The notes beneath the pieces are model-generated. The model worked only from the letters and a program-made list of their open reading frames with translations, ran no database searches and was not told the DNA's origin. 27,714 bases of DNA from a virus (Duplodnaviria > Heunggongvirae > Uroviricota > Caudoviricetes). The stretch's first letter is position 1. Each line of letters opens with the position of its first letter. Made by a program: the position numbers and the translations under genes. The stretch lies in the IMG/VR virus record IMGVR_UViG_2778261035_000014, one strand, 5' to 3'. Shown piece by piece: positions 2,137 to 18,693 of this stretch.

Positions 2137-2142
2137 AAAGTG

Positions 2143-2421: not shown

Positions 2422-2610
2422 TTCGCTTCTCCATGAACGCCATAACACCGAATTTTTAACTACGTTAGCGTTATAGCGACTTCTAGCGACTTCCGTAAAC
2501 GGTCAGTTATCAAACAATTGACACTGGTCATAAAACCAGTAAAAACTTTTTTCCGAGCTTGCTAACTTTGCCGCTTCGCTTCTATCATAACCACTACATA
2601 TTGTGTTTAT

Positions 2611-2619
2611 TGATATAAT
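2611..2619 (+). promoter_or_regulatory. Extended -10 promoter element TGATATAAT
   Basis: Exact TGnTATAAT match about 45 nt upstream of the 2664 ATG; no good -35 needed. Confidence 0.35.
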
Positions 2620-2663
2620 AAATACAATATATCCAAACATCCATCCCGTGAATAGGTGTTGAA

Positions 2664-2912: not shown

Positions 2913-2946
2913 AAAAAAGCCGGGATTAACCCGGCTCTCATGTTTT
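2911..2946. terminator. Bidirectional intrinsic terminator
   Basis: A8 tract, then stem gccggg/cccggc (2919-2924 / 2930-2935) with loop attaa, then tgtttt. It reads as hairpin plus T-tract on both strands, between convergent stops at 2912 and 2938. Confidence 0.6.
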
Positions 2947-3150
2947 CAGCTTTCGTTGTCGCTGTTCGCTCAAGTAGTACCTGATAGCGCTGTCGAATCC
3001 ATGCGTATGGATGCGGTCAAGAAGGCTGGAACGACTACACTCAAGCCTGCGTGCTAACGCTGACATGTTGATGATCGCATCATCGCCTTTACCGTCCAGA
3101 ATCCACTGCATCAGCGGCATGTTGCCAGTACCGATCAAAGCTAATTTCAT
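2938..3150 (-). CDS. Small helix-turn-helix DNA-binding protein (70 aa)
   Basis: ATG at 3150 with a perfect AAGGAG Shine-Dalgarno 6 nt upstream. HTH-like segment MSALARRLECSRSSLLDRI. C-terminus AIRYYLSEQ resembles the 17329-17544 product (AVQYYVSKQ), and both sit just downstream of the capsid gene. Confidence 0.6.
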   Translation of the reverse strand: MKLALIGTGNMPLMQWILDGKGDDAIINMSALARRLECSRSSLLDRIHTHGFDSAIRYYLSEQRQRKLKT

Positions 3151-3263
3151 ATATATCTCCTTTCCTTTGCCTCCAGCACCGAAGGTGTCTCGCAATAGCG
3201 AGAGTGCTTCGCACCGTTAGCCTCGCCAGCAGCGGGGGCAATGCGCCCCCAAAATCCGCTGTC

Positions 3264-4280
3264 TTACGCCGCGTCATCCATCGTAATTTTCAAAACGAAG
3301 TCCGGACGCATTGGGATCTGAATTTGTGATAGCTCGCTGACCACCTCATAATTCATGAACTTATCACGCAGAACGTAATGGTAAGACGGATAAACCGGAC
3401 CATTAGCAACTTCTGCGTGGCGTGAGGCTGGCGTGCAGTAGGTCATATAAGGTGAAAGGTCGCCTTCAACAACATTGGAGAACGTCGCCAGCATGTAGCC
3501 TTCACCATCTGCAATGCCATATAGCGGATCGTCAACCTGCACCACTGTTACACGCCCGATGTTATATCGATCATATGCACCCAAAGTGTCAGGGAAAATG
3601 ATGTCACGGGACGTAGCACCAAACAGAGCCGCCTGATATGCGGTTGGGTTGCCTTGAATGGCGGTGAAAAGACTCGGACTCGCCAGCAGATAAACCTGCT
3701 TGATGCTGGAAGACCAGCCACCCAGATTTTTCTTCAGCAGCGTGACAGCGTTCTGCATCTCAGTAATGACGTTGGCACTGATGCCAGTTTTCACCACAGC
3801 AGACGGCTGGTTAATACCCCAGAAGGTTTGCCAGTTCAGATCAGGACCTTCACGTAGGTGTGTCGCCTCTACAGTATTGTGAAGCAGGCTCTGCGCCATG
3901 GCATATTCAACATCACGGCGGGTTTGCAGGTAGTGCTTCAGGGTATGATTAGCAACTACATCTTCAGCGGTCATCTGGCGATTTGTTCCCGGCTGACGTT
4001 TCCCCTGCCAATCCTGGCTGGTGATGGTTGAGCTGTAGACATGCAGTGGAGCCTGAACGGTCACGTTAGCCGCTTTAGGGAAGTTTAGACCCGACATTTC
4101 AGAACCATAACGGGCAACTGATTTAGTCACTTCACGCTGCACATCTTCAAGTGTGTCGAGTGCGATGATTTGCGTATCACTTGGACGGCTGGTAAAGATC
4201 CCCAGGCTGGACAGAAGGAACCCCTCGCCGCTTGGCTTCACGAATTGACCAGAAAGATTAGTAAAATCACTTAATTTCAT
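3264..4280 (-). CDS. Major capsid protein, lambda gpE-like (Phage_cap_E-type)
   Basis: 338 aa against about 341 for lambda E. By eye it shares block patterns with my recollection of gpE, such as a C-terminal RPDFVLKIT motif. Paralogous to 17665-18693 (DWQGKRQPG vs DVQGKRKPG). AAGGAG Shine-Dalgarno. Follows a ~115-aa gene, as in lambda D-E. Confidence 0.7.
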   Translation of the reverse strand: MKLSDFTNLSGQFVKPSGEGFLLSSLGIFTSRPSDTQIIALDTLEDVQREVTKSVARYGSEMSGLNFPKAANVTVQAPLHVYSSTITSQDWQGKRQPGTNRQMTAEDVVANHTLKHYLQTRRDVEYAMAQSLLHNTVEATHLREGPDLNWQTFWGINQPSAVVKTGISANVITEMQNAVTLLKKNLGGWSSSIKQVYLLASPSLFTAIQGNPTAYQAALFGATSRDIIFPDTLGAYDRYNIGRVTVVQVDDPLYGIADGEGYMLATFSNVVEGDLSPYMTYCTPASRHAEVANGPVYPSYHYVLRDKFMNYEVVSELSQIQIPMRPDFVLKITMDDAA

Positions 4281-4298
4281 ATTGTTATCTCTCCTTGA

Positions 4299-4643
4299 TT
4301 AGATTGCGGTGTTTGCGTCAGCAATACGGTTGCCTTGCTTAACAAGGGCAGCGTAAGCAGCATCTTTTGCAGCAGCCGCTACAACCAGACCTGATGGATT
4401 GAACACGCATTGGGTATCACTGATAACAAGGCTACGGGCATCACCAGCGACTTGATTTTGCAGAGCTACAGCACAGTTATCAGCATCTGCTGCAACGTAT
4501 GCCGCGCCAGTGGTCGGGTTAATCACATCACCACAAGTCACATCAGCAGCCAGATCAAGGATCACGGTGCGCTTATGAAAGATCGGTGAATCGGTATAAA
4601 CCAATACATCCTGTGGGGTTTTGCTTTCGTATTCGAATGCCAT
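4299..4643 (-). CDS. Putative head decoration protein (gpD-like by size and synteny)
   Basis: 114 aa from the ATG at 4643, which has a GGAGA Shine-Dalgarno (ORF-track start is 4658). Directly upstream of the capsid gene with an 18-nt gap. Paralog at 18712-19083. Product is assigned from size and position, not from clear sequence identity. Confidence 0.45.
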   Translation of the reverse strand: MAFEYESKTPQDVLVYTDSPIFHKRTVILDLAADVTCGDVINPTTGAAYVAADADNCAVALQNQVAGDARSLVISDTQCVFNPSGLVVAAAAKDAAYAALVKQGNRIADANTAI

Positions 4644-4694
4644 ATTTTGTATCTCCATACAGTTTTTATAATCCGGCGAATATGCCGGGTTGAG

Positions 4695-4722
4695 TTGAAA
4701 AAATACCGTCCATCGGACGGCA
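4695..4722 (-). terminator. Intrinsic terminator or attenuator upstream of the capsid operon
   Basis: Stem ccgtcc/ggacgg (4706-4711 / 4715-4720), followed on the minus strand by TATTTTTT. A second hairpin ccggc/gccgg at 4673-4688 lies between it and the start codon. Confidence 0.4.
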
Positions 4723-4996
4723 TTCTTCTATTCGTGTTCCAACAGAAAAAGACCAAGGCGAGAATATCCCGCCCGGTGTAGGTCAGTAGTTTTCTGATGG
4801 AGAGATTTGGAAAGCATGAGTGTGTTCACGCTTCAGGAATAAGGAGGCGGCAACGCTCCAAAGAATGGGTAAGGAGACCCAAAAACGTTGCCACCTGATG
4901 CCGTTAGTGTCCGGCTGACAGCCTTCCGAGGATGAAAGGGCTTTGGCAAATCTCCGATCCAAGGTCGGAGAAAATTCTTCTACACCCGTTTACGGG

Positions 4997-5016
4997 TTAG
5001 CAACATATGTTGCTAA
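4997..5016. promoter_or_regulatory. Perfect 20-bp palindrome ttagcaacatatgttgctaa (candidate operator)
   Basis: Exact dyad symmetry, preceded by hairpin cccgtttacggg (4985-4996). Sits in the 650-nt ORF-free gap between the tape-measure-like gene and the capsid genes. Confidence 0.4.
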
Positions 5017-5313
5017 TCGCTCTACGATACTTTTCTAATACAGCCAGCGGCAATGGCCTAACCTTCCCGTGAGAGAGTGCGGATTATTGGCTGTATGAGA
5101 AAAGGCCCGCACGGTGTTCACACAGGCACTTTAAGTAAGGAGAAGGAATGACAACGGCTGTTGTACGCACATACAATTTAAATCATCACCCTATGCAATT
5201 ATTTTAACACGAATGATTATCATTTGCAACAACAAAAACAATAACATGGCGAATTTAACGGCCCTCTCTCGTGTGGGCCAATTTACTACGTCATTTTTGA
5301 CGGAACGATGATT

Positions 5314-7482
5314 TTAGTCCGCAATCCCAAGGATGAGGTTATTCTGCGCCTGGTTGTTTTCCCTTATCTTGGTATCAATCAGACCGTTAATCGCACCATC
5401 ATTAACATTCACCTCAAGAGGCGCAAACTTGATCTCAGCTTCGCCAGTGACCGCAACAGGAATCGGCTGTCGTTGAACTATGCTATCAATTGTCGGAACC
5501 GTGAACGTTGGTTGCTGGGGTGTCAGATAGTTCAGGCCAGGAACATTCAACGCTAGTGCTGGATCGTTATACGCCATGCCTGAGCCGATATTGCTCGGAG
5601 CGGAACTATCCAGCCACGGGTAAATCTGCTTAAGCGTCTGACCGATGCTACGTGGATCAAAGCCGGTCTTTTCCTTAATCCAATCGGCAGCACCATTTGA
5701 GGAGTCATCTACCACGCTCGTATAAACCGCATCCGGCAATGTTGCGCCTTTCTTGAGTTCTTCACCGACTCGACCAGCGAAGGAAAGAATGTTGGTGGTT
5801 AGCTCACCAAGAGCAACGCCGAGGGCATCGGAAATTGGGATCAGTCCAGTCATATTCTGACGTAGAGTGTCAGTATTGGCAGCGTACTGCCCCAGGCCTT
5901 CAACAAACGAGGCTGAGAAGTGATCCGCAAGACTTGTTTGTACTCGGTTGTACTCAGCACCCAAAGCTGCCAGCTTATCAAGGTTGGCCTGCTGTGCATC
6001 AGATAGGGTCCATCCTTCAGAAGCGAGTTGATGCATACGGGCAATAACTTCATCACCTTCCCCACTGATACCCGCCATCAAGACCGATCCGTCATTGATC
6101 GCTTCCAAAAAATGACGCATGGAATTCTCTGTCCAGCCGAATTGTTTACCCAACTGCCGCACATAGGTAACGAAGGTCCCCATGTCCAATTTCTGAAGCT
6201 CGCCAATCACTTTTTGTGCTGTTCGCTGGTTGGTTTTGCTAAGAACTGCATTCACCAGATCGGCAAGTTCACCACCTCCGCTGAATGTTGTTACCCCTTG
6301 CTTGTTAGTTTTAAAGGAACCGGTATTCAGTAGCTCACCTGCTTTCTCGAAGTAATCCTTATTCATGGACGCATACTTATCTACGGTCAGGTCGTACCCT
6401 GTACGCTTCTGTACAACGTCATGGATAGCATTAAATTCAAGCTGGCTAATATCATACTGCCTTAATTGCTGCGCCTCTCTGGAGCGTTCAAGACTCCCCT
6501 GGAGGGTCTGACCAACACGAGCAACTCCCATTGAACCAATCAGGGATCCCCCTGCAATTACACCAGTGGCAGCGAGGCCACCATAACCACGTTCGCTACG
6601 TTCACGTCTCAAACGTTGAGCATTAACGCGCCCTGCTCGCTCTACTTTAGCCCGATCCTTAACCATCTGGCGGTTAATACGTGCCTGCCGCCTGGTTTCC
6701 AGAGTCGCTTTAGCAAGTTCATGGCGCATTTCTGCGATGGTATAACGCTGCTCGGAGTATCCCTTGGTAGCCTCTTTGATTGCCTGCACCGCTTTCATTT
6801 TGTCAGCCAGGCTGGCACCTTCGATATGGCTGATCGTTAAACTGGCGCGGCGTAGGGTGTCGTATGCAGTGCTCTGGCGCTTGAGGCTGGCTTCTTTCTC
6901 ACGCTGGCGCTTCTCTTCCAGGGCCATCGCCTTTTTGGTGGCTGCGATGTCAGCAGCAACAGCGCCGTGACCACGGTTCATTGCGTCAGTCTGACGGGAA
7001 ACAAGACCAGGATCGTAATGTTGACCGCCCATGTTAGGGTTGTAGGTCATCGCTCGTGATCTGGCTGCGGCCTGCACTTTTGCGGATATATTGGCTAAAC
7101 GGGCGTTTTGTCTCCGGATCTGTTCACTATCTGCCAATTGTTGAGCCTGCCCTCTGGCGTTAAGAGCCTGCATTTTCCGGGCGTGAGCCTCTTCCTGTTT
7201 TGCGATCTTTGCCTGGGCTTGGGCCTGGCGTTGTTGCTCTAGCGAAAGCTTTTGAGCCATTTTGAGGCGCTGTGTTTGAGCGCGGGCTGCTTCAAGGGCT
7301 GCTTTACCCTCACTCTGGGCGGTTCGCTTCTGAGCTTGCTCCAGCGCTTTAGCAGGTTTGGTAGTTAATTGCTGAAGTGACAGAATTTTCTTCTTCGCTG
7401 CTTCGTAACTAGAGCGGGAAATTTCCCAGCTTACGATATTGACGGTGCTCGTCACTATCTTGTTGGTTGTTCCACTACTCAT
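5314..7482 (-). CDS. Long coiled-coil protein with a glycine-rich hydrophobic segment (tape-measure-like, function unresolved)
   Basis: About 722 aa from the ATG at 7482 (MSSGTTNK...), which overlaps the upstream stop in ATGAGTAG. N-terminus is Ala/Gln/Lys/Arg-rich and helical. Central segment GYGGLAATGVIAGGSLIGSMGVARVG. Analogous to 15469-17310. Confidence 0.6.
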   Translation of the reverse strand: MSSGTTNKIVTSTVNIVSWEISRSSYEAAKKKILSLQQLTTKPAKALEQAQKRTAQSEGKAALEAARAQTQRLKMAQKLSLEQQRQAQAQAKIAKQEEAHARKMQALNARGQAQQLADSEQIRRQNARLANISAKVQAAARSRAMTYNPNMGGQHYDPGLVSRQTDAMNRGHGAVAADIAATKKAMALEEKRQREKEASLKRQSTAYDTLRRASLTISHIEGASLADKMKAVQAIKEATKGYSEQRYTIAEMRHELAKATLETRRQARINRQMVKDRAKVERAGRVNAQRLRRERSERGYGGLAATGVIAGGSLIGSMGVARVGQTLQGSLERSREAQQLRQYDISQLEFNAIHDVVQKRTGYDLTVDKYASMNKDYFEKAGELLNTGSFKTNKQGVTTFSGGGELADLVNAVLSKTNQRTAQKVIGELQKLDMGTFVTYVRQLGKQFGWTENSMRHFLEAINDGSVLMAGISGEGDEVIARMHQLASEGWTLSDAQQANLDKLAALGAEYNRVQTSLADHFSASFVEGLGQYAANTDTLRQNMTGLIPISDALGVALGELTTNILSFAGRVGEELKKGATLPDAVYTSVVDDSSNGAADWIKEKTGFDPRSIGQTLKQIYPWLDSSAPSNIGSGMAYNDPALALNVPGLNYLTPQQPTFTVPTIDSIVQRQPIPVAVTGEAEIKFAPLEVNVNDGAINGLIDTKIRENNQAQNNLILGIAD

Positions 7483-7858
7483 TGCCCCCCCCCTGCTGCT
7501 TGATGATATTGCCGTAACGATCAGGATCAGATTTTGCGAGTGCAGCAGCCGCTGCTTTAGCTTTCGCCAGCATTTCAGGATCGATATGGTCAGCGGTATG
7601 TGAGACAACCGGACGGCTATCAGCACCCAACGATTTTTTAATCCGTTGTTCAGCACCAAAGGTGTCTCGCATTGGTGAGAGGGCTTCGCCCTTTTTACCC
7701 GTGGGTGTGTCAGCCGGGGCTGATTTGAGCAACTCCGGATGTTGATCCAGAAAGTTATCGGTGACGCTCTTCAGATTGTCCCGCGCTTTTTGAAGTTCGT
7801 ATTCCTCCGGTGTCATGCCATGCATGGCGGCGAAAATCCGGTCTTTTATTGTGGTCAT
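7475..7858 (-). CDS. Hypothetical protein (127 aa)
   Basis: ORF with a GGAGA Shine-Dalgarno, translationally coupled to the downstream long gene. Contains the MRDTFGAE segment whose DNA (7655-7695) is about 85% identical to 3175-3217. Confidence 0.45.
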   Translation of the reverse strand: MTTIKDRIFAAMHGMTPEEYELQKARDNLKSVTDNFLDQHPELLKSAPADTPTGKKGEALSPMRDTFGAEQRIKKSLGADSRPVVSHTADHIDPEMLAKAKAAAAALAKSDPDRYGNIIKQQGGGNE

Positions 7859-8029
7859 TTTTATAGTATCTCCAGAGAAGGATGCTCCCGCCGATCAGGA
7901 CGTGACGAAGCGCCACCCAGCCCCAAGGCAGGAAAAAGATGTAATCAAGGTTCATTGGCCCCCGATGTGGGGTTGGGTCAGTGCATCGCAAGGCGATTAA
8001 CAGCAATTGCTGTTAACCCTTTCAGGGTG

Positions 8030-8608
8030 TTAGTAGTGCAGGCGTGGTGAACGTCGCTGCGGGTTCTTCTGTTTTCTGGCGACTGTTTCACGATAGGCCA
8101 CAAACAACGGATCAGTATGATCCGGCATTCGAGATGCCATTTCTTTTTCAGTGATTCCTTCACGCTTAAGCAGCGTCACCACGGTGAATAGAGGCAGTTG
8201 AAGGTCAGCACAGATTTTTGCCAGCATTGCGCCGGATTCGTAGTACATTCGGGCCATTCGCTTAGTGGCATACTGACTGGTATTGCTTATCTTACGACAG
8301 CGAGGATTCCACGAGTTATCGTAAAGGCCTTTTACCAGGTCATACGGCAAGCGTAGGAGCAGCGCCGTTTTGCCTGGGGTGTAACCATGCACGAGCATTT
8401 TTTTAGCAGTCTCGATCAGCGAAGAATCACGAGAGCGGGATTTGTAAAAACGTGACAAATCGGGGGTTTCAGCACCGGAGGTGTTTACCTCTGGTAAACT
8501 GCTTCGCACCGTAAGGGATTCAGCCGTCAGGCCGTTGGCTGTCTGGCTGATGCCAGTTACTTTCTCACACAATATTCCTCCAGTATCAAAAAGGGATCTC
8601 AGGATCAT
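8030..8608 (-). CDS. Hypothetical HTH-containing protein (possible regulator or small-terminase-like); start uncertain
   Basis: ORF of up to 199 aa whose 5' end overlaps the rep-like gene. HTH-like segment GAMLAKICADLQLPLFTVVTLLKREGI. No family recognised with confidence. Confidence 0.35.
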   Translation of the reverse strand: MILRSLFDTGGILCEKVTGISQTANGLTAESLTVRSSLPEVNTSGAETPDLSRFYKSRSRDSSLIETAKKMLVHGYTPGKTALLLRLPYDLVKGLYDNSWNPRCRKISNTSQYATKRMARMYYESGAMLAKICADLQLPLFTVVTLLKREGITEKEMASRMPDHTDPLFVAYRETVARKQKNPQRRSPRLHY

Positions 8609-9389
8609 CTTCATCGTAGTGATATACATCCGGCCCGTTAACTTGTTGCTTTACTGGCGCTGGTTCTGTTGCGGGTATATCGTCAGGCCGCATCTGTTCT
8701 CCTGGCTCACCCATATTGGTTTTGCCTTTCAGTTTCCATACAAGTTTGATCTCATCCTGCCAGGTTGTAGCACCATGGGATTGCGCCCAGCGTCGCGCCT
8801 CTGGAACCAAATCCCCACGAGAGGTAAACGAGTTGGCGAGCCATGGTATCCCGACAACATTTTCCCCAGCTGACTCACTCAGTGATGGATCATCACTATT
8901 GGATAAATCAACATCGACAGGAATATCCACAGCAGGTACGCCGTCTGGTTTTCCAGTAACAGGCGCGGCAGATGCCACCACGAAAGATTCCACAACAGGT
9001 TTTTGCTCATTCTTACCGCTCTCCTCGGTTTCCACTTTTCTATTACTCGCCTGCGCGGAATTATGATCGTCAAGAAAAACCATCAGCGATGGATCGAGTT
9101 CGACCGGAGAAATTTTGTGTGTACTCCCCTTCACTTCCTCAAAAGTGATCATTCCAGCTTCACGAAGCTTGTTCCTGAAATTGCGAACGGCTTCGGGCTT
9201 GCAGCCGCAACGTTTACCAATCGTGCCAACAGATTCGTAATAAGTTCTGCCTGTTTTGTCATAGCTGTAAACCAGAGATAACAAAATTTTCATGTTGCCA
9301 TTAATGGTCAGGCCGTTGTACTCGGTAAGGTCGAGAACGCTGTATTCAAGTTTTACAAAATCCTTACTGTCCCGGTTCTGTTTGCTCAT
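8586..9389 (-). CDS. Replication-initiator-like protein with N-terminal winged-helix DNA-binding domain
   Basis: 267 aa with a GGAGA Shine-Dalgarno. N-terminal segment KILLSLVYSYDKTGRTYYESVGTIGKRCGCKPEAVRNFRNKLREAGMIT is typical of phage or plasmid replication initiators. Acidic Pro-rich C-terminus. Positional analogue of 21938-22603. Confidence 0.55.
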   Translation of the reverse strand: MSKQNRDSKDFVKLEYSVLDLTEYNGLTINGNMKILLSLVYSYDKTGRTYYESVGTIGKRCGCKPEAVRNFRNKLREAGMITFEEVKGSTHKISPVELDPSLMVFLDDHNSAQASNRKVETEESGKNEQKPVVESFVVASAAPVTGKPDGVPAVDIPVDVDLSNSDDPSLSESAGENVVGIPWLANSFTSRGDLVPEARRWAQSHGATTWQDEIKLVWKLKGKTNMGEPGEQMRPDDIPATEPAPVKQQVNGPDVYHYDEDDPEIPF

Positions 9390-9567
9390 TCTGTTCTCCG
9401 TAAAGTGTCGCCTTGCTGGCTAATGCTGGTTTGATGTCTGGTGTGTTGTCGAAAATGTTCGCGGCAGTCTCCAAGATTTCATTACAGAGCCGTGCCAGGG
9501 GCTTGTCCTGCCTTTTGGCCTCAGCCAGTAGAGCCTGATAAACGTGCTGTTGAAATTTGATGTTCAT
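9364..9567 (-). CDS. Ribbon-helix-helix (CopG/Arc-like) DNA-binding protein
   Basis: 67 aa. MNIKFQQHVYQALLAEAKRQDKPLARLCNEILE is clearly homologous to the element-2 small ORF MNINFDSATYNALLNRAKAEGKSIPKLVNELLI. Overlaps the rep-like gene start. Confidence 0.55.
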   Translation of the reverse strand: MNIKFQQHVYQALLAEAKRQDKPLARLCNEILETAANIFDNTPDIKPALASKATLYGEQNEQTEPGQ

Positions 9568-9655
9568 TCAAGTTGTCCTCCTCGTTCTAGGTACAAAAGA
9601 CCTCCCGCCAGTGGTCGCCCAGAAGGCGAACCGGCTCAGGTTTTGTTCAGTGTTG

Positions 9656-10102
9656 TTAGGCTGCGGTTGCTGTCGGGAATTCGCCAGCCAGTGGATAACC
9701 GTAGGCTTCAAGTTCTTCTGCACCGCTGACAGCCACAAGCAGCATAATGATCTGCTCATGAGTCAGAGAAAGACCTAGCTTATCCAGATAAAGCTGTCGA
9801 TGGCCTTCCAGGATTGGACGAAGTATATCGGTCAACTCCATTCCAGCAGCGCGTTGATTACTCAGCGGCTTAAGGATGGTTTTAAACGCTCGCGCCTGCT
9901 TCGCCTTTTTGCGCTCCTGCTTCAGAATATGCAGGCAGACGGCAATCTGAGGAAGTCGGGCATGTACAGCGTCTGCCCCGCCGTTTCTACTAATGAAGGC
10001 CCACAAGGCTGATTTGGTGTATTTGCCGTTCAGGATGAGATCAGCGATCTGCTCGCCTGTCATAGTGGTCAGGTCGAGACGTTGGGATTTTGGTTTATTC
10101 AT
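9656..10102 (-). CDS. Hypothetical protein (148 aa), first gene of the leftward operon
   Basis: ORF with a GGAGA Shine-Dalgarno; no family recognised. Confidence 0.5.
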   Translation of the reverse strand: MNKPKSQRLDLTTMTGEQIADLILNGKYTKSALWAFISRNGGADAVHARLPQIAVCLHILKQERKKAKQARAFKTILKPLSNQRAAGMELTDILRPILEGHRQLYLDKLGLSLTHEQIIMLLVAVSGAEELEAYGYPLAGEFPTATAA

Positions 10103-10850
10103 TGGGTTCTCCGTTCTGTTAAAAGAATTATTCGCGGAGGTTCTATTTGTAACCCATTTTGTATTGCCGTGAGGTTGACAAGGAATGTCGTGATGACGGC
10201 AGAATTATTCGAGGATTCATAGGTAAATCATTACCCTACTAGAATCTATTGTATCAGATTTGTCTGTAAATAGCAATCATTATCATGTAGGATTTTATAA
10301 TGCATAATAATCACCATAACACTACAAGTTTACAAAATCTTTGTCAATAGTGCCAAGCCGTTCTATAACGCGTTCTGCGGGTACTTGTCACCATAGGAGT
10401 ACATACGTATCACCACCACCGTTTAAACGCCATAGAGAGGCTTTAAGGAGGTCTGTTAGTTAACCCGCGCCGCCCCGGAGTGAACCGGACAGATGCAAAG
10501 CAGTCCTCTACGCCGTGCTCCGCTCCACATATGGCGAACAAGTTCGCAGCTTCCACACAGAGTAAGAGCGTAGCTCTATGGCGTAGCCTGCCGGGTTACC
10601 CGAGTCACAGAGCGGAGCGATGTGTTAACGAGGGTTAGAAGGTCACGAGATGGCGTGGCTGTTTCACGTCAGCGAAGGTGAGCTTCTTACCACAAACATA
10701 TCTGAAGTGGCTGACCAGCCATTGCAGAGCGGAGCGATGCAGAAGCATCACTATTAAAACTAACAGAATGACCAACCGTCATTCCGTGCTCTCGACCTGG
10801 AGGTACTTTTCTTATCAGTTCTTTTATGGGGATTGTTATTTATTATTATT

Positions 10851-10932
10851 GTGCTCGAAAATCGACTACCCCCTACTCGAAAATCGTGCAGGTAGGTGCT
10901 CGAAAATCGAGGGGGTGGGTACACGAAAATCA
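10851..10932. repeat. Iteron-like array: four ~23-bp direct repeats with core CTCGAAAATCG
   Basis: gtgctcgaaaatcg (10851), tactcgaaaatcg (10875), gtgctcgaaaatcg (10896), acacgaaaatca (10921). Spacing is 22-24 bp, about two helical turns. The spacers ctaccccct and agggggtgg are complementary. Confidence 0.55.
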
Positions 10933-12213
10933 TGCAGGTATCACCGGGTGAGAATTTTCCAAGTCATCCACGCGACCAACGCACCGATGAAAACTTCCGG
11001 TTTGATATGTCCGCGTCATGCTTCAATGGCACAATCAACGGCAACACCTGAGGCGGTCCAAACACCTGATCCGCTCCGAGAATTGATCATCTCCCTCCCC
11101 TGCTTTCATCTGAAAGTACCGACCATTCTCCGCGCTGGCTGAAGATTGGCAACCCTATACTGATTTTCTGTCAAAATTTGGTGGATGATCTTTACCATTG
11201 GCTATCTTGTAAACAAAATAGATTAAATGCACCTCAAATAGCCCATAATCCGTAGTTAATCATGCTAAAGTGGTCACTATGCGTACAAATCAGAAGTCTG
11301 AACCTATGGGCGTTATGGTGTGATGTACATAACGAAGCCTTGCCAGCACTGGAAGCGTGAAATTTGGTGGCTGGTATCTGGATCAAGCAACACTCAATTT
11401 CTGAACCTTCGCTTCAAAAAAATAATAAAACAACACACAAAACCAAAACAGATGCCCTCTGGTGGCTGCTGTATCGCGCTGTGGGATGCTGTGGATTATC
11501 GGTATGTCAGTTCACGTTTGTGTAGAGATAACGCCGCTACGGGTTTCTGGTTGAGCGTAGGAGGGATTGGTGGGTTGGCTGTTTACATTGTTGTGGGAAA
11601 TGGTACGAAACAGTGGCGGCCTGGCTCGGTGAATATCACCAGGTGATGGCAGACCTTCAGCCCGTTGTGGTAACGTCGCCGTAGTAGCCCTATGTCTGCT
11701 GCGAATAGAAAAATGTGCTTTTATGGCATTTGATGCACTGTAAACTTCAAAGGCCTGAAACCTGAAATTGTGTGGTGACCAGCCAAACTCATCCAAAATC
11801 CTTGAACAAGAGAACTCACCTCAAATCCTCCTGAATGCTTTCCTTCTGTTGGTGAAATCGCTGTTGTGTACCACGCTTCGCATCAACGCTCCGAAAAGCA
11901 ATACCTGACTATTCCAGTCAAGTACATGTAAGATACAATATGTTAAATGGCTGTACAATTAGTGAACACAGGCACTTCAAAACATCAAGTTATCTCCCTT
12001 GCCTCAGCCCAAAGCAGCATTGTGTAACTGCACTGCTTGTTGCAGTGAGGCGTGTCGCTGAAGGCATCACGTAGCGATATTTGGCGAAGAAAAGCGCTTT
12101 TCACCGAGGGCCTGGGCTGACGGTCTAGCAGATCACCAACAGAGCTGGGGATATTTTCAACAGGAGAATGTAAACTTGGAAGATAAAGAGCCGGGACACT
12201 TACGGGGCAGGTT

Positions 12214-12429
12214 GTGGAAATGAAGAAAATTTTACTATTTGTTGTGGTACTGCTGCCGCTGGCGGCTCATGCAGGAAAAATCACCATAAGCAACCCCGAC
12301 GAACAAGAATTACAGGGCGGGAAAAGGCTTTGCACTTACGAAAACAGCATTTATCTGTTTACGCTGGTGACTCGCTCGCAATCCTGCCCTTTCTCAAAAA
12401 CGTTCGATACAAATGATAATGAAAAGTGA
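12214..12429 (+). CDS. Small secreted protein with two conserved Cys (paralog of 25846-26061)
   Basis: About 70 aa with signal peptide MKKILLFVVVLLPLAAHA. Conserved blocks GKITISNPDEQ, LCTYENS.YLFT, CPFSKTFDT are shared with the element-2 paralog. Confidence 0.6.
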   Translation: MEMKKILLFVVVLLPLAAHAGKITISNPDEQELQGGKRLCTYENSIYLFTLVTRSQSCPFSKTFDTNDNEK

Positions 12430-12442
12430 AACGGAATGTCTG

Positions 12443-12931
12443 CTAATGGGGTGCTTTGCCGATCATCTCCTTAAGATCTTTGAAGCGTTCTTTGATTATT
12501 CTTCCATTCTCGGCTAAACGATTCGCTTCAAACGCAGTGAATTGAGCAATATTTTCTATTTCTTCGCGGCTGATGCTCATAAAATTCTCATCAAGCTTAG
12601 AGAGCATATTTGTGACACCTTGTCTACTTTGTGTAAAGAAACCAAGGTTATCTCTGACACCCTTAAGAAGTTCTTTCTTACCATAAGGGTTCATATTTGT
12701 ACTCGTTTCTATAGACTTGATAAGCTCTTCCGTGTCACTACATATTCCACGGTAAACCAGTTCGACCTCACGAAGCTCTTTCACTGTATCAATTTTCATT
12801 TTCCTTAATGAATCATGCTCAGCATTTTTTCTTGATCGATAGGTGTTATACAGAGCAGTTATACTGACAACAAGTGCAATGAAAGAGAATAGAGCGCTAA
12901 AAAAAGGCAGCAATTCTTTTGACATTTTCAC
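12443..12931 (-). CDS. Membrane-anchored coiled-coil protein (cargo, unknown function)
   Basis: 162 aa with a GGAG Shine-Dalgarno. N-terminal TM helix LLPFFSALFSFIALVVSITALY, then a charged helical domain. Low GC. Confidence 0.6.
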   Translation of the reverse strand: MKMSKELLPFFSALFSFIALVVSITALYNTYRSRKNAEHDSLRKMKIDTVKELREVELVYRGICSDTEELIKSIETSTNMNPYGKKELLKGVRDNLGFFTQSRQGVTNMLSKLDENFMSISREEIENIAQFTAFEANRLAENGRIIKERFKDLKEMIGKAPH

Positions 12932-12953
12932 TCCAAATTTATTAGTCTAGAAG

Positions 12954-13652
12954 TTAACTTCTAAATTTTTGAAAACAACGTCGATCAATCTCTTGTGCCA
13001 ATCTAGTCCGCATCTCTCCATAGCTTAATCTTTCCATATCTGAGGCTATTTTCCAACCACAACCTTTGAAATTACATTTAATAATAGGAAATGGGACATA
13101 GTTATAGAGATCAACGCTGGAGTGTTGGCTAAGAAGGCCTCCACATTTAGGGCATCTCATGTGAAGATTTATTAAAGAGTACCCACTATCACCTAATGCT
13201 TTAGTCCATTCCCAAGAAACTATCATTTCATAAATATTATCCGAAGTATAATGCAAAAAACTGCCCTCTTGTCCTGTAGCTTTCGCTGCAATACGACGGC
13301 GCATTACAAATCCAACAGTAGGTAAAATTGCCAATAATAAAATCGATAAAATGAGGAGCATCCATAAGGGCATTGTGACTGGGAAGGTAAGGATGTCCAT
13401 TAACCAATGGAAGAACTGCTTAATGTAATTCCATAGCCACACAACGACGGCGATCCCACTTCCTCCAGTGACAAGTGCAACGATAACGCCCGATATGCTG
13501 TCTTTGCTAAGGTCTTTCAACCATGCCATAGAAATTCTTCTTATTAAGCTATTCTTTATGCTCAATTTTACAGCGAACCAGATTTTAGGCAATAGGAGCC
13601 ATAAAGCGCCGTGATGGGTACATCCATCGATCAGCGCCTTCAGGCGTGTCAT
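12954..13652 (-). CDS. Membrane protein with C-terminal 4-Cys zinc ribbon (cargo, unknown function)
   Basis: Up to 232 aa; the start may instead be the internal ATG at 13529. Two or three hydrophobic helices, then CPKC-(x25)-CNFKGC. Sits 22 nt upstream of the 162-aa gene, so probably an operon. Confidence 0.55.
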   Translation of the reverse strand: MTRLKALIDGCTHHGALWLLLPKIWFAVKLSIKNSLIRRISMAWLKDLSKDSISGVIVALVTGGSGIAVVVWLWNYIKQFFHWLMDILTFPVTMPLWMLLILSILLLAILPTVGFVMRRRIAAKATGQEGSFLHYTSDNIYEMIVSWEWTKALGDSGYSLINLHMRCPKCGGLLSQHSSVDLYNYVPFPIIKCNFKGCGWKIASDMERLSYGEMRTRLAQEIDRRCFQKFRS

Positions 13653-14140: not shown

Positions 14141-15361
14141 GTGTCGATCAAGAGCCAAGCATACTTATTTAAAAGAAAAGATGGGATCTGGATGTTTCAG
14201 ATTTTTGTTCCTAAATACTTACGTCATCTTTACCCTTATAAGTTGTGGAGAAAAAGCACATCTACACGAGATCTGAATGAGGCGAGAAGATTCAGAAACC
14301 ATCTATTATTAGAATGGGAGGAACTAAAGCGAAAACATAATCCTGATAACCCCGAAAGGAGGTTACAAAAAGCTATTGAATCCTTACATTCAGAGGCAAG
14401 GGCCAATAAAAACACGCAAAGAGCCGTAAAACGCGGTTATGCACCGCCTTCCCTGTGCCTAATACGTGACGAATACGCCGAATGCTACAGAGAGCGTCGT
14501 TCATACTCAACACTACAGAAATCAGCAAGGGCCGTTGAGCTATTTTTACAAAGCATTCAGAAAGATGATATTCATATTGAGAAAATAGGCAGACGGCTTG
14601 TAACAGTATTCTTAGATGACCAGAAGCAACGAGGAGCAGCCGATCAATCTCGTCAAAACTGGCTTACATGCTTAGGATCGCTCTATGAATTTGCTAAACG
14701 CCGTTATGACGGAATACCAGACAATAACCCTTTTCACGGTCATAACCTCGAAGCACGTCGCACAATCGAGAGTTATCAACCGTTTACACCTGAACAAATG
14801 CAAAAGCTACTTGATGCAGCGGAGCCGGAGATCAGAAATATTATTTTAATGGGCTTGTTTTCAGGATGCAGATTAGACGAACTGGCAAGCCTGAAAAAGT
14901 CAGAGGTTGTAACTGTGGAAGGAATACGCTGTTTTTATATCAGCAAGAGTAAGACTAAAGCAGGGATCAGACACGTTCCGATACATTCGAGACTATCGAT
15001 TATTGTCGATGAATATTTAAATCATAATTATGGTGAATATTTGTTCCCTCACTCGAACAAAGTAAAAAGAATCGACGGCAAGAAAGGCCCGTTCTATTCT
15101 CAAGCATTCTCACGTTTACGTCGTAACGTCTTGCCAATCGCTACAGATAGACAATGCTTTCACAGCTTGCGCGGGATGTTTATCACTTGTCTTGATCGTG
15201 CCGGAGTGCCTGAACAGCGGATCGGAGCCATTACCGGACATACAGAGCAGAGAGCTAAAACAGAAGCCTTTCGCACCTACTCACAAGGGGCAAGCATTCC
15301 AGAATTAGCTGAATATGTAGAATTAGTAAAATATGAATTAAATATTGATTTTAAGGCGTAA
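14141..15361 (+). CDS. int: Tyrosine-type site-specific integrase (second, diverged copy)
   Basis: 406 aa with a GTG start and AGAGGA Shine-Dalgarno. Same catalytic motifs (SGCRLDE, HSLRGMF, GHTEQ...RTYS). N-terminus differs from integrase 1. Confidence 0.9.
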   Translation: MSIKSQAYLFKRKDGIWMFQIFVPKYLRHLYPYKLWRKSTSTRDLNEARRFRNHLLLEWEELKRKHNPDNPERRLQKAIESLHSEARANKNTQRAVKRGYAPPSLCLIRDEYAECYRERRSYSTLQKSARAVELFLQSIQKDDIHIEKIGRRLVTVFLDDQKQRGAADQSRQNWLTCLGSLYEFAKRRYDGIPDNNPFHGHNLEARRTIESYQPFTPEQMQKLLDAAEPEIRNIILMGLFSGCRLDELASLKKSEVVTVEGIRCFYISKSKTKAGIRHVPIHSRLSIIVDEYLNHNYGEYLFPHSNKVKRIDGKKGPFYSQAFSRLRRNVLPIATDRQCFHSLRGMFITCLDRAGVPEQRIGAITGHTEQRAKTEAFRTYSQGASIPELAEYVELVKYELNIDFKA

Positions 15362-15468
15362 AACAACGCCATAAACGTAATAAAAAGGCTTCCTTGTAAT
15401 GGGAGCCTCTTATATGCTTAATTCCTTACAAGAGTGTTTTAGATTGTGATTAAACATTCTCTTTATCA

Positions 15469-17310
15469 TTAACTTGGTGCTTGCCCAGACAGAGCCGCCA
15501 ACGTGAAACTACGTTCAAAATCTTGTTGGATACTTCCCACTTTGTAATCGAGGTATGATCCAAGCTGACTACCATCAGGGGCGATATTCACATCCACCTT
15601 GCTTTCCGGCACGTTTACGACGATGTTCGGTGCATACGTCATAGATGGGGTAGTGTTCAGATCACGGCTAACGTTCTGTTTCAGGGATTGCACGTTATCA
15701 GATGGGCTTGCATAGTTCTGAATTGCAGTTCCGCCAGTCGTTGGCTTGTCTTCCGTGCCAGGAATAGGATCTAAGCCTAAAGCACTACGACCCCAATCAA
15801 CCATACCACCTACAAACGAGTCCTTATAATACATACCGGACGAATCAAGGTTTTCATGCTTGTTCTCTGGGTTGATATTTTGGTATGCAGCAGTAAGCCA
15901 CGATACAGCACCAGCAAAGGCGCTCATCATTTCAGCCGTTGAGCTTCCAAGTTCTTTAAACAGAGGATTCAAATCTTTCAACATTTGCGCCCACTCTTCA
16001 CCAGCTTGAGCATCGAACTCTTCACCAAATCCAGTCATGATAGCTTTCTTACTACCTTCCCATGCCATATTCATATTTGCCTGTACCGCTTGCAGACGTT
16101 CGGCAGCGTCCAGATCCGCTTGTGTATAGGTGGCATTGGCCTTTTGCATCTTAACGATGGTCTTGTTTAGCTCTTCACCATTACGACTAAAGGCACCACG
16201 GAAATATTGCAAATCATTGCCCAGGTCTTCAAGGATGTGCCCGATTTCTTGATCTGATAATCCACGGCGTTCACCTTCTTTCACTACAGCGCCCAGGAAA
16301 CCTAAAGGATCAGTCTGGAAACCTTTAACCTGTTCAGGTGACCAGCCATATTTATTAAGGATGTTATCGACGGCACCATTACCGCCAGCCCAGCGACCTT
16401 TCTTAGCGTCCCATTTGGTATTCCCTACGGATTCACCTAAACGTTCCTGAACGTCTTTAAGGTTGTCTTGACGTTGGTCTACGGAACTATCAACACCGTG
16501 TTCTAAGCCGTACTGGTTGAGAGCTAACAGGGCGTTAGTGTTTACGTTGACAGCCTTTGCCTTGCGGTTAGTGTCTGTGATCTTGCTTGCCTGATCGGTT
16601 ACGGTATTGAATATCGCAGCACCGCCGAAAGTAGCAGCAGTGAGAGCGGCACCGCCTACCATTGCACCGACACCAGCGCCCATATGACCACCTTTAAGCT
16701 GTTTAGCCATATGTGGGTATTTACCGCCATCAGCCGCCACCTGGCGAGCTTTTACAGCAGCCGCACGGCGTTCTAACGTGATACGATCACGGATCAGGTG
16801 ATTCATCTTAGCCTGACTTATAGCGCCTTTCTCATACGCTGCCGTTTGTGCTTTGATGTATTGCAATGTTTTGTAGTACTGGGCGCTGTTCATACCGTCG
16901 CCCATACGCCCTTTTTTGATGCCTTCAAGCTGGCGGAAAGCTTGCTGGCGTTTAATCTCTGCCTTCTCTGCTATTGTCGCTTTAGCGCGGATCTGTTTAT
17001 CGGCAGCTATAGCGGCTTTAGCCTTCGCTTTAGCTTCTGCCTTTGCCACCTTATCAGCGTTCTTCTTGTCTGTTTGAGCTTGCTTGTCTGACGCTTTAAC
17101 ATCAGCTTTAGCCTGTGCAGCTTTACGAGCCTTTACCAGATCATGAGCATCGTCTATAGCTTTTTTAGCCTTCTTCCCTTTCAATGTTGGATTGGTCAGG
17201 TTTTCCATTTCTTTTTGAAATTTCTTCCCTGCATCGCGTGCTTTCTGCAATGATGCAAAATCAACTTTAAATACAACCTTGTTTGTTAAGGTTGAGATGT
17301 TTAAATCCAT
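15469..17310 (-). CDS. Long coiled-coil protein with glycine-rich hydrophobic segment (tape-measure-like, function unresolved)
   Basis: 613 aa with an AAGGA Shine-Dalgarno. TolA-like KAKAEAKAKAKAAIAADKQIRAK helix, then GGHMGAGVGAMVGGAALTAATFGGAAIF. Lies downstream of the capsid and HTH genes, unlike element 1. Confidence 0.6.
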   Translation of the reverse strand: MDLNISTLTNKVVFKVDFASLQKARDAGKKFQKEMENLTNPTLKGKKAKKAIDDAHDLVKARKAAQAKADVKASDKQAQTDKKNADKVAKAEAKAKAKAAIAADKQIRAKATIAEKAEIKRQQAFRQLEGIKKGRMGDGMNSAQYYKTLQYIKAQTAAYEKGAISQAKMNHLIRDRITLERRAAAVKARQVAADGGKYPHMAKQLKGGHMGAGVGAMVGGAALTAATFGGAAIFNTVTDQASKITDTNRKAKAVNVNTNALLALNQYGLEHGVDSSVDQRQDNLKDVQERLGESVGNTKWDAKKGRWAGGNGAVDNILNKYGWSPEQVKGFQTDPLGFLGAVVKEGERRGLSDQEIGHILEDLGNDLQYFRGAFSRNGEELNKTIVKMQKANATYTQADLDAAERLQAVQANMNMAWEGSKKAIMTGFGEEFDAQAGEEWAQMLKDLNPLFKELGSSTAEMMSAFAGAVSWLTAAYQNINPENKHENLDSSGMYYKDSFVGGMVDWGRSALGLDPIPGTEDKPTTGGTAIQNYASPSDNVQSLKQNVSRDLNTTPSMTYAPNIVVNVPESKVDVNIAPDGSQLGSYLDYKVGSIQQDFERSFTLAALSGQAPS

Positions 17311-17328
17311 AATATTTTCCTTTACCTT

Positions 17329-17544
17329 TTATTTATTCTGTTTTGATACGTAATATTGCACTGCTTCCATAGCGGAACAGCCTGTAGCAAAAATTCTTTG
17401 ACGTACAGCGGTATTAGAGATCCCTAAAAACTTACATACTTGTGAGATATTTAGAATATCTTCCGGTAAGGTGGAAACAGCTTTCAGGATTTCAACGGGA
17501 TTGTTATTTTGTGTGTTCATGGTTTTCTCACTTTTATTCGACAT
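17329..17544 (-). CDS. Small helix-turn-helix DNA-binding protein
   Basis: 63-71 aa. HTH-like ILNISQVCKFLGISNTAVRQRI. C-terminus homologous to the 2938-3150 product. Confidence 0.55.
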   Translation of the reverse strand: MSNKSEKTMNTQNNNPVEILKAVSTLPEDILNISQVCKFLGISNTAVRQRIFATGCSAMEAVQYYVSKQNK

Positions 17545-17664
17545 TAGAAAACAAAAAGGGCAAAGAGATCCGTTACTGTATTTGCTTTACAGGTTAGTTA
17601 ATCCCTTTTGCCCTTATTGCCTGTTTTATTTCCAGTCGCACAGGAAACGACTATTAACGCTTTA

Positions 17665-18693
17665 TTACGCTACTGTGATCTGTACAGTGAAGCCTACGCC
17701 GTGGTTTACAACCATCTGGCTATTCTCGGTAACTACGTTTACAGCGTCGTTACGTGCTGGGCTAAATGCATAGCTGTAATATTCAGCCGATCCAGAGTTC
17801 AGAAGGTCGAACGTTGAAGAAGGAGCGCCGAAAATGTTCTGATAGACGTTAGAGCCTTTAGCGAACTTCGGAACAGCCACCGCATCAGAAGTCATATGAG
17901 CCAGCAGCAGCGGATCGGTAACTTTGATCAGATCAATGTTAGTGCCTGGAATAGTGAAGGTAGTCACACCTGGCAGCAGGGAGCGCACACTATAAACGAT
18001 GTTTGCGTCATCGGTAGGGCTTGCATACTGGAACGCGTTAACCATGCCAGCACTGTAACGGATAGCGTTAAATGCAGCAGGTTTACAGAATACAACGATA
18101 CGCTCTACAGCAGCCGCCTGGCTTTGTGCTTTAGTAATAACGTCTGTATGCATCTGATCGAATTGCTGGAACACCATAGAAGGCGTGGTGCTTGATGCGT
18201 CGATGGTTGCAGTCAGCGGAACAGCACTAAACAGATCGCCCCACTGAATCAGCACATCGTCAGTTTTAGGGGTGTAGGTGCGACCACTAAACAGGGAAGC
18301 AGCCAGTACGCTTTCTTTAGTACGCTGGAAAGCAATGTGGTGCTTAGCAACATATTCCGCGTAGATATCTGTCAGAGTCTCTTCAACGGTAGCGCCTGGT
18401 TTACGTTTGCCTTGAACGTCTTGCGGCTTAATCATATCTTCACGCAGGAAGTAGGGGATCTCTACTAAAAATTCTTTACCCTGTTCACGTTTAGTCACGT
18501 TATGTTCAGAAGAGAAACGAGAGGTTTCTTTGTTGAACAGAGATTCGTTAGTTTCCACCAGTTGGCTAACAGCCACTTTATGAGAACTCACACCTACCGG
18601 ATCAGTGAAGTCCAGAGTAGTTAACAGGAAGTTGCGAGAGTCGTGCAGACTAAACAGCGGAGCCAGATCGACGGATTCATTACCAATAATCAT
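17665..18693 (-). CDS. Major capsid protein, lambda gpE-like (second copy)
   Basis: 342 aa with an AAGGA Shine-Dalgarno. Paralogous to the 3264-4280 product and preceded by the small partner gene. Confidence 0.7.
   Translation of the reverse strand: MIIGNESVDLAPLFSLHDSRNFLLTTLDFTDPVGVSSHKVAVSQLVETNESLFNKETSRFSSEHNVTKREQGKEFLVEIPYFLREDMIKPQDVQGKRKPGATVEETLTDIYAEYVAKHHIAFQRTKESVLAASLFSGRTYTPKTDDVLIQWGDLFSAVPLTATIDASSTTPSMVFQQFDQMHTDVITKAQSQAAAVERIVVFCKPAAFNAIRYSAGMVNAFQYASPTDDANIVYSVRSLLPGVTTFTIPGTNIDLIKVTDPLLLAHMTSDAVAVPKFAKGSNVYQNIFGAPSSTFDLLNSGSAEYYSYAFSPARNDAVNVVTENSQMVVNHGVGFTVQITVA

Follow-up and report, generated by a model that had tools for sequence, protein, structure and literature searches.

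What is the function of the gene-free, GC-rich segment that separates a leftward operon from a putative replication origin in an integrative element of Escherichia coli? The segment is found at 10380–10800 of a 27,714-nt stretch of DNA (IMG/VR virus record IMGVR_UViG_2778261035_000014), which as a whole is referred to as the window and whose positions are used throughout. An original prediction regarded it as a candidate structured RNA, either regulatory or conferring immunity, or as a multi-site operator. Our results showed that the segment covers most of a conserved non-coding block of ~380–420 nt, extending from 10372 to 10754–10790 and consisting of a chain of local hairpins. On sequence comparison, we put the probability at about 55% that this block is a folded RNA of the + strand, acting through its structure on the early switch of the element, on the firing of its origin, or on both; these two roles, early expression and origin firing, would carry roughly equal weight. 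The computed base of this reading is the conservation of the block, its non-coding nature, its compensatory local stems, the strand bias of its body and its constant position.

The composition of the segment was as originally described. Its GC content was 53.2% at 10380–10800, as compared with 35.4% at 10140–10379, 28.3% at 10801–10860 and 43.9% for the whole window. The longest open reading frames (ORFs) starting inside it were 52 aa, plus a 154-aa GTG ORF that exits through the origin repeats, and the block carried no RefSeq annotation in any of the 14 E. coli genomes in which it is complete. The 15-mer CAGAGCGGAGCGATG occurs twice in the window, on the + strand at 10608–10622 and at 10725–10739, the second copy having been placed one base too high, at 10726. 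Allowing up to two mismatches still yielded only these two matches, when 0.04 were expected from shuffles. The 15-mer core, GAGCGGAGC, starts at 10610 and 10727 on the + strand and its reverse complement is at 10517–10525, as claimed; three occurrences on both strands compare with 0.15 expected, and none of 100 shuffles reached three. The inverted pair ccatagag/ctctatgg is not only present but longer than claimed, 11 nt at 10427–10437 being 100% complementary to 10574–10584. Both members of the pair taacccg/cgggtta are also present, with TAACCCG at 10462–10468 and CGGGTTA starting at 10592 rather than at 10593.

Homologous loci of other genera were fetched via the 148-aa protein encoded next to the block, and viral and metagenome contigs were scanned with the pattern AGCCATT(N)CAGAGCNNAGCGA. 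Filtering with nhmmer left ~33 sequences, ~30 of them distinct; the nhmmer match in the window spanned 10341–10786. By nhmmer and tblastn, the gene order was constant: capsid, decoration, 720-aa protein, initiator, 67-aa ORF and 148-aa ORF, all leftward, followed by the block and the iterons. This layout was found in Escherichia, Citrobacter, Enterobacter, Pseudocitrobacter, Dryocola, Buttiauxella and metagenomes, and Klebsiella appeared only among matches to the neighbouring protein. The position of the block was invariant, as the early operon was always followed by the block, a short hairpin and then iterons that differ between elements. The leftward early promoters have the block immediately upstream of them, and 20–60 bp separate its other end from the AT-rich/iteron origin.

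The identified homologs fell into classes. Class A, the type found in the window, had pairwise identities of 54–100%. Class B possesses another 5′ domain, built around GAGGGGGG-AGCGCCGCCCC-UCCAAGGGGGG, and is without the middle domain (window 10561–10690) that holds the first 15-mer; in three sequences, a class B 5′ part is joined to the middle domain. Class C, from more distant loci, shares only short motifs and the layout. Class D is the second element of the window itself, with CTTTGTCAA at ~23068, GAGCGGAAAGCGA at 23700 and iterons at 23918–23968. As an internal homolog, this second element showed neither BLAST similarity nor a match to the covariance model R1, and only short motifs and the same layout are shared; a distant analogue of the structured element may be present in its control region. 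That control region (22934–24939) also contains AAAACGCTCTCAATCGC at ~23176 and an AT-rich stretch, and the repeat at 23918–23968, 23 bp long, is present in 2.2 copies. The class of the 5′ domain tends to switch with the early module, and the late genes stay 91–97% identical (window compared with L030). Exceptions are L054 and L045, which have the class A form, yet their 148-aa ORFs were only 29–31% identical.

Sequence changes within the block were not those of a gene. A single G is present or absent in GCCATT(G)CAG, within the best-conserved stretch (an indel in 10 of the 32 listed sequences), and a single T in CTGTT(T)CAC. In addition, hairpin insertions of 47–66 nt, which are not multiples of three, occur at fixed sites in L004, L006, L009, L020 and L058. 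Because the 1-nt indels break the frame in the most conserved stretches, the block is not coding. A − strand ORF from an AUG inside the hairpin P5 was also considered as a gene and rejected, its frame being broken by the G indel.

The structured body is at 10372–10754 of the + strand. Its 5′ domain (10372–10531, +) differs by class and contains the conserved CGCCGCCCC at 10468–10476 as well as GCTCCGCTC at 10517–10525, which lies in a variable segment. Near CGCCGCCCC are small helices that exclude each other, CCGG/CCGG at 10475–10488 and GGAC...GUCC at 10487–10506. The latter hairpin is replaced by GGGUAAA/UUUGCCC in L003 and L004, a compensatory change with a U·G, and in L003 the exclusive helices are CCCGA/UCGGG and GGGUAAA/UUUGCCC. 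Both alternatives survive sequence change, and a conformational switch around CGCCGCCCC is possible. The 5′ domain is followed by hairpin H8, GCGAA CAAG UUCGC (10534–10547, +), and the junction CCACACA (10553–10559). In other homologs the H8 site holds GCCGC/GCGGC, GCGUG/CACGC or (GAC)GCGC/GCG(GUC). Hairpin H1, AGAGC GUA GCUCU (10565–10577, +), is GAGAGC/GCUCUC in most homologs, CAGCGU/ACGCUG in L008 and L014, and GAGGGC/GCUCUC, with one G·U, in L007.

The first copy of the 15-mer (10608–10622, +) is the H7 site, flanked by ACAGA...GAUG, at which the hairpin of the window has shrunk to GC-GGA-GC. Five unrelated stems of 5–9 bp were found at H7: AGCCA/UGGCU, CAGCAACC/GGUUGUUG, ACCAGC/GCUGGU, ACAGGCU/AGCCUGU and GC GUAA GC. 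A long hairpin of the middle domain follows (10633–10691, +), in which P3a (10633–10646/10678–10691) encloses P3b (10649–10655/10667–10673). In P3a and P3b, 97% of the cells were paired in 19 sequences, with a compensatory change from AGAAG/CUUCU to AUAGG/CCUAU in L006 and L058. After a second CCACA junction (10690–10698) comes hairpin P4, CUGAA-G-UGGC loop GCCA-UU(G)-CAG (10702–10727, +), which was nearly invariant in all 30 distinct homologs except that its loop varies in sequence and length and that its 3′ strand carries the 1-nt G indel. The second copy of the 15-mer (10725–10739, +) comprises the end of P4, a GC-GGA-GC mini-hairpin and the start of P5. Nowhere is the family more conserved than here (CAGAGC-NN-AGCGA). 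This copy was found in every class A and class B sequence, and its relatives are GAGCG(K)AGCGA in class C and GAGCGGAAAGCGA at 23700 in the second element. Hairpin P5, GGAGCGAUGC AGAA GCAUCACU.. (10731–10754, +), has a universal C·A opposition and 73% of its cells paired; its strand, and even the helix itself, are uncertain. Finally, the hairpin or palindrome M7, GAAUGAC CAACC GUCAUUC (10766–10784), stands just before the origin. In classes A and B, at least six different stems were found at this site, with three more in class C. The G·U extension of M7 exists only on the − strand, and on that strand M7 has a terminator-like score and a following U-rich run. M7 is probably a part of the origin cassette and not of the RNA body, because the second iteron block of L059 carries its own AACACC linker and M7 hairpin. 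In L059 (6648–7268, −), this second origin cassette, with AACACC linker, M7-type hairpin and iterons, is inserted in the middle of the element, so that the 5′ and 3′ halves each precede an origin.

The stems were supported by comparison among homologs to different extents, most clearly at H7, H1, H8 and M7, where unrelated stems take each other's place within conserved flanks. For P3a, P3b, P4 and P5 on the MAFFT alignment A4, which was not fitted to any structure, 91.2% of the cells pair, as compared with 29–50% when the partners were slid by 1–3 columns. On this alignment five pairs had both sides changed; five were reached by 11 of 500 shuffles, and the covariation score by 24 of 500. The covariance model built from the unfitted alignment, R1, gave 33 matches, all in the same orientation relative to the element. 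It matched the window at 10627–10793 and had no match in the class C loci. After fitting to the model, the alignment of 30 distinct sequences had 12 pairs with both sides changed, and none of 500 shuffles reached any of five measures. These figures are an upper bound, because the alignment was fitted to the structure and the class B H8 was laid over P3a.

We conclude that the body up to P4 is on the + strand and reads toward the origin; P5 and M7 could be on either strand. On the + strand, P3a and P3b together had 24 G·U cells versus 2 A·C cells, and on the − strand those 24 would be mismatches; one P3b pair was of the G·U type in 10 of 19 sequences. The H7 variants folded at −8.3 to −12.6 kcal/mol on the + strand versus −5.4 to −9.5 kcal/mol on the − strand. 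The H7 variants and a recurrent inserted hairpin had G·U only on the + strand and were 1–6 kcal/mol better there. RNAalifold gave −58.6 on the + strand versus −49.1 on the − strand for the 3′ half, and the fold of the window itself had z = −3.5 versus −1.1.

The local stems that covary are not the long-range pairs on which the structured-RNA proposal had been founded. The part of that proposal that held is a conserved, non-coding block with the marks of a folded single strand, namely compensatory stems, fixed-site hairpin insertions and a G·U bias on one strand; its long-range architecture did not survive comparison. Pairing of the 15-mers with their upstream complement reached 8–9 nt only in the lineage of the window and 4–6 nt in the other 14 class A homologs, and in L052, L035 and L042 the 10517–10525 block is swapped for a self-contained hairpin, e.g., GGCUUC AUCG GAAGCC. 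Similarly, ccatagag/ctctatgg pairs over 9–11 nt only in the lineage of the window and over 4 contiguous nt in others. It shares bases with H1, which covaries, and so competes with it. The complementarity of taacccg/cgggtta was 6–7 nt in five lineages and 3–5 nt in the remaining ones, and could reflect a contact that is real but weak, or else follow from a local CGGG-UUA-CCCG hairpin. It is also unlikely that the two 15-mers form a multi-site operator, because copy 1 lies in a variable hairpin and is missing from homologs without the middle domain.

Instead, the sequences, when inspected, suggest that the 15-mer is a junction motif, CAGA-GC(GNA)GC-GAUG, present once in each duplicated unit. A unit would consist of a long hairpin (H8 or P3a), CCACACA, a short interrupted hairpin (CUG-CGGG UUA CCCG-CAG or P4), CAGA-GC(GNA)GC-GAUG and a terminal hairpin. 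Class B has one such unit and class A two, and therefore the 15-mer occurs twice in the window; in L018, the scan pattern was found twice, 112 nt apart. The 3′ unit hardly varies among homologs. Copy 1 is a vestigial form of the variable hairpin H7. Classes C and D have the core GA-GC-GNA-GC-GA as well, and the G and A residues flanking it could form tandem sheared G·A pairs. A nearly identical hairpin, GUGAACC-GGA-GGUUCAU, is inserted at differing positions in L006, L020 and L004 (with an AGA loop in L004), and the H7 extension CAGCAACC-GGA-GGUUGUUG, found at the H7 site of L003, L004, L014, L017, L045 and L054, has the same C(GGA)G loop. This recurrent GGA-loop hairpin could be a transferable protein-binding module. 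A CsrA sponge, an idea raised by the GGA loops, was rejected after a hand count of 7 GGA in ~420 nt versus ~6.6 by chance.

No known family accounts for the block. The 4227 models of Rfam 15 gave no match at gathering threshold in the whole window, and at E ≤ 10 only four chance-level matches to unrelated families at 10100–11300; a scan for tRNA and tmRNA found nothing. Among eight homologous loci, Rfam matched only a flanking tRNA. Searching with blastn at a word size of 11 revealed no match to the block in 50,697 phage or 72,556 plasmid records, and no description of this satellite type or of an associated RNA was found in the literature. Thus, the block is new as a conserved structured element missing from Rfam, genome annotation, and phage and plasmid records, and its closest relatives by logic are P4 CI, P1 C4 and RNA-controlled replicons.

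The CI RNA of P4 and the C4 RNAs of P1 and P7 are ~70–80 nt long and lie in the leader of the operon that they control, on the same strand, with short conserved complementarities; RNase P processes them, and they end early transcripts prematurely. Similar to them, the block would be a mobile-element RNA in an early control region, where that of P4 replaces a protein repressor, and the originally proposed pairing of one block with two repeats follows the logic of P4 seqB with seqA and seqC. Different from them, the block is ~400 nt long and on the strand opposite to the early operon, and its complementarity, at 4–6 nt in 14 other class A homologs, is not conserved between core and repeats. It does not lie in a leader either, as the G·U bias puts the body on the + strand and promoter-like sites lie between block and operon. 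The C4 covariance model had no match even at E ≤ 10. The block might be an immunity RNA of some other kind; none of the P4/P1-type features looked for was found in it.

Replicons of the ColE1 RNA II/RNA I type need no initiator protein or iterons. A sense/antisense pair, as in ColE1, could explain the opposite strand bias of the 3′ end, and no antisense promoter was identified here. The orientation taken from the G·U bias of the body and the adjacency to the AT-rich/iteron block would fit a ColE1-type transcript directed toward the origin. Different from ColE1, the element carries four iterons and an O-like initiator, and no similarity was found to any of the 72,556 plasmids. A marine family of RNA-based plasmids (PMC3035462) was compared alongside ColE1 as an RNA-controlled replicon; the likeness with both would be a folded RNA of several hundred nt that runs toward the origin and ends at it and whose structure is conserved rather than coding.

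Two further systems are similar in part. The single-strand initiation signals of the G4 and PriA types, ~60–140 nt long, are also hairpin clusters beside an origin that act on one strand, those of the G4 type through priming by primase on single-stranded DNA. The block is far longer and lacks phage and plasmid similarity. Its body looks like RNA, in that G·U pairs are common and one of the H7 loop variants (GUAA) is of the GNRA type. The put RNA of HK022 consists of two hairpins of ~70 nt and is, like lambdoid antitermination RNAs, a promoter-proximal folded RNA in a lambdoid-type control region. A put-like need is conceivable, as ~1.4 kb, with the origin on the way, might have to be transcribed before the next gene on the + strand (12214) is reached. 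However, no similarity to put was found and put is much smaller.

According to the favoured reading, the RNA would be made from the divergent control region, rightward toward the origin, with an extent, a start and an end that we infer, and it would act via its fold rather than via the antisense pairing first proposed. It would control early expression, from the position of a repressor in the switch, or origin firing, or both. The former role is favoured by the position of the block, which is divergent from the early operon as that of a repressor gene would be, and by a 5′ class that changes with the early module. The latter is favoured by the constant contact with the AT-rich/iteron region, by the orientation toward the origin and by the part nearest the origin being the most conserved whatever the iteron type. 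An unlikely extension would make the block a large modular RNA that is the master control of undescribed, capsid-encoding islands resembling phage satellites; its class-specific 5′ domain would set specificity and its invariant 3′ unit would engage a host, helper or capsid factor, coupling the sensing of a helper to origin firing.

Several results weigh against an RNA of the + strand. A rightward promoter candidate, TTGTCA at 10342–10347, a 16-bp spacer and TATAAC at 10364–10369 (10342–10369, +), was found by direct reading and not listed by the consensus scan. It is weak, its −10 element being TGTAAC in most homologs, and the alternative, a conserved perfect TATAAT at 10296–10301, is without a good −35 element. 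No intrinsic terminator was found on the + strand in a scan. Given these weak signals and the lack of a terminator, the case for transcription comes from structure and not from signals. Predicted duplexes between the RNA and the early leader had energies equal to those of shuffled controls, in a crude test that paired whole molecules. Covariation on the unfitted alignment was modest because the 3′ half is so conserved, and the consensus structure of the 5′ domain was poorly supported by RNAalifold. The fold z-scores of ten homologs were modest as well (−0.5 to −5.6) and did not separate the strands. Full-length RNAalifold on the MAFFT alignment slightly favoured the − strand (−150 versus −140 on +), in a prediction that was unstable and whose long-range helices were poorly supported. 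P5 and M7, which are nearest the origin, show the opposite bias, P5 having 30 A·C versus 8 G·U cells on the + strand, and tolerance of G·T does not distinguish RNA from single-stranded DNA. Moreover, the neighbouring 148-aa protein has no recognisable fold, and therefore it cannot be argued firmly that the element has no protein repressor.

The strongest rival, to which we give a small yet appreciable chance, is that the hairpins act as single-stranded DNA, as an origin accessory for priming, primosome assembly or another structure that depends on unwinding and is exposed when the AT-rich region melts. The block always adjoins the AT-rich/iteron origin, and in L059 M7 and the AACACC linker travel with the iteron cassette. 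In addition, the lack of a convincing promoter or terminator fits DNA, separate use of the two DNA strands could explain why the G·T-type pairs of P5 and M7 are on the strand opposite to those of the body, and the GC-GNA-GC core would match d(GCGNAGC), a type of very stable DNA mini-hairpin reported near some phage origins. With ~400 nt, at least eight helices, class-specific domains and a duplicated unit, however, the block is far above the size of known priming signals. Its frequent G·U-type pairs fit RNA better, and it resembles none of the phage records, which include microviruses with G4-type origins, and none of the plasmid records with known signals. A transcript of the − strand is less probable than that. 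In this case a long leader, or else an antisense RNA from near the origin, would extend from the origin side into the early operon as in P4 immunity, with the 15-mers and their complement pairing to cause premature termination. Such a transcript would turn the C·A opposition of P5 into U·G and would give M7 its terminator-like form with the U-rich run; it also agrees with the slightly better full-length RNAalifold value and with the 2 + 1 complementary 9-mers of the window. It would also turn the G·U pairs of the body into 24 C·A mismatches, and it relies on a complementarity that is neither conserved nor covarying. Furthermore, the promoter-like sites of the early operon (10248–10276 and 10319–10347) are downstream of the block on that strand, a 140-nt AT-rich gap lies between block and operon, and neither C4 nor any other Rfam model matched even at E ≤ 10.

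We consider it quite improbable that the block works as double-stranded DNA, i.e., as an array of palindromes bound by proteins or as a cos or pac site for the terminase of a helper phage. The two halves of M7, a perfect palindrome, change in concert, as expected for a site bound by a dimer, and the block itself remains highly conserved among elements with differences in other parts. But its stems, with their interruptions, bulges and nesting (P3a around P3b), accept G·U on one strand only, its loops vary freely, entire hairpins have been inserted or exchanged, conservation does not extend to the first 15-mer, and BLAST showed no similarity to phage genomes. A lambda-type cos site was rejected in particular: AACCCGCG...CCGCCCCG at 10463–10477 has what we take to be a resemblance to the flanks of lambda cosN, but the 6 central bases are missing, classes B and C do not have the string, and phage similarity is lacking. 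Least probable is a degraded coding gene, e.g., a former repressor gene, in spite of a position divergent from the early operon and a GC content above that of the flanks. It has no internal ORF above 52 aa and no conserved frame, with 1-nt indels in the best-conserved blocks and the 47–66-nt hairpin insertions, and conservation across the ~30 distinct sequences of several genera is blockwise and not codon-like.

If the block is transcribed, as the reading of a folded + strand RNA holds, it would represent a new and fairly large family of structured RNA in E. coli, Citrobacter, Enterobacter and related genera. To our knowledge, RNA-based control of satellites is so far known mainly from P4. The block would then be a second such control, unrelated to that of P4 and much larger, and its covariance model would be a handle for finding islands. 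If it acts as single-stranded DNA instead, it would be an unusually elaborate origin accessory. It sits at the decision point, between early promoter and origin, of a little-known island that has its own lambda-like capsid and decoration proteins and few other genes, and for which tandem arrays are possible.

On the early side of the block, the candidate for the main promoter of the leftward operon is at 10248–10276 (−), with the −35 element TTGCTA at 10276–10271, a 17-bp spacer and the extended −10 element TGaTACAAT at 10256–10248. A consensus scan and sequence reading found the TTGCTA-17-TG.TAYAAT arrangement in class A and class C homologs as well. This site is probably the main early promoter, with a leader of ~140 nt to the 148-aa ORF starting at 10102. 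A second, conserved promoter-like site, TTGACA-17-TAnnGT, is at 10319–10347 (−), and its −35 element is the CTTTGTCAAT box. This conserved box (10339–10348) can be read on both strands, as TTGTCA on the + strand and as the consensus −35 element TTGACA on the − strand. All class A sequences contain the box, class B sequences have it one to three times, class C has the form A/TTGTCAA, and the second element carries it at ~23068. An inverted copy, TTGACAAGG, is at 10175–10183. TTGACAAGG and CTTTGTCAA (10175–10183 and 10339–10348), inverted relative to each other and spaced by 153 bp, stand on either side of the early promoter region, and class B has three direct TGTCAA boxes ~40–50 bp apart. The TGTCAA-type boxes could be operator sites besides being −35 elements. 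In the leader, the 5′ untranslated region of the 148-aa ORF (10103–10143, −) can fold CCUCCG...CGGAG, which pairs the Shine-Dalgarno sequence, and the same hairpin with another loop is found in the distant loci L010–L013. The leader also contains a 15-nt repeat, AGAATTATTCG(C/A)GGA, twice, at 10124–10138 and 10201–10215.

On the other side of the block is the putative replication origin (10809–10940), to which no strand applies. It consists of an AT-rich stretch (10809–10851, 28% GC) and four direct repeats of 22–23 bp with the core CTCGAAAATCG (10851–10940). The origin repeats differ completely between related elements, as iterons do, and 10809–10940 is probably an iteron origin for an O-like/DUF6945 initiator. 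The candidate for the latter is a 267-aa protein (8586–9389) with weak matches to lambda O-like/HTH_36 initiator families, which is assigned to DUF6945 in RefSeq.

The window is chromosomal DNA of E. coli: twelve genomes, strain RM10740 among them, have the identical sequence, and in two further ones the identity is 94.6%. The full block was found in 14 of 5,426 complete genomes; RM10740, 90-1, TW10690 and TC24 are examples of carrier strains. The block is within a 2.1-kb gene-free stretch (10102–12214) of an integrative element of ~12–13 kb, whose copy in strain TC24 is bounded by a duplicated TPP riboswitch that sets its size at ~13 kb. The leftward operon from 10102 encodes the 148-aa, 67-aa and 267-aa proteins, three further uncharacterised proteins (one of ~720 aa), as well as a decoration protein resembling D of lambda and a major capsid protein resembling E of lambda, with an integrase at the far end of the element. 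The 148-aa protein had no match in Pfam, NCBIfam or PDB sequences and none below E = 3.9 with Foldseek; it was predicted to be all-helical, with a pLDDT of 86. In a search for phage relatives by which to name a helper, tblastn of the capsid protein against the 50,697 phage records gave no match at E ≤ 1e-5.

Similar to this element (901–13650), the adjacent one (14141–24939) is a small integrative element, and the two related elements form a tandem array that is followed by a third integrase fragment from 24939. Each contains a tyrosine integrase, a large uncharacterised protein of 613–722 aa and a 2-kb gene-free control region. The lambda E-like capsid genes are at 3264–4280 and 17665–18693, and the D-like decoration genes at 4299–4658 and 18712–19083. 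No portal, protease or terminase match was found in the two elements, and these tandem capsid-carrying elements may be an undescribed type of phage satellite. A gene-free gap of ~650 nt (4658–5314) separates the decoration gene from the 720-aa gene and is also blank in RefSeq (L001 11544–12215). Beyond the origin, a further 1.3 kb (10950–12214) has no annotated genes, up to the gene for a 71-aa putative lipoprotein (12214–12429, +); blocks at 11436–11640 and ~11650–11950, which match neither phages nor Rfam, are conserved in several genera.

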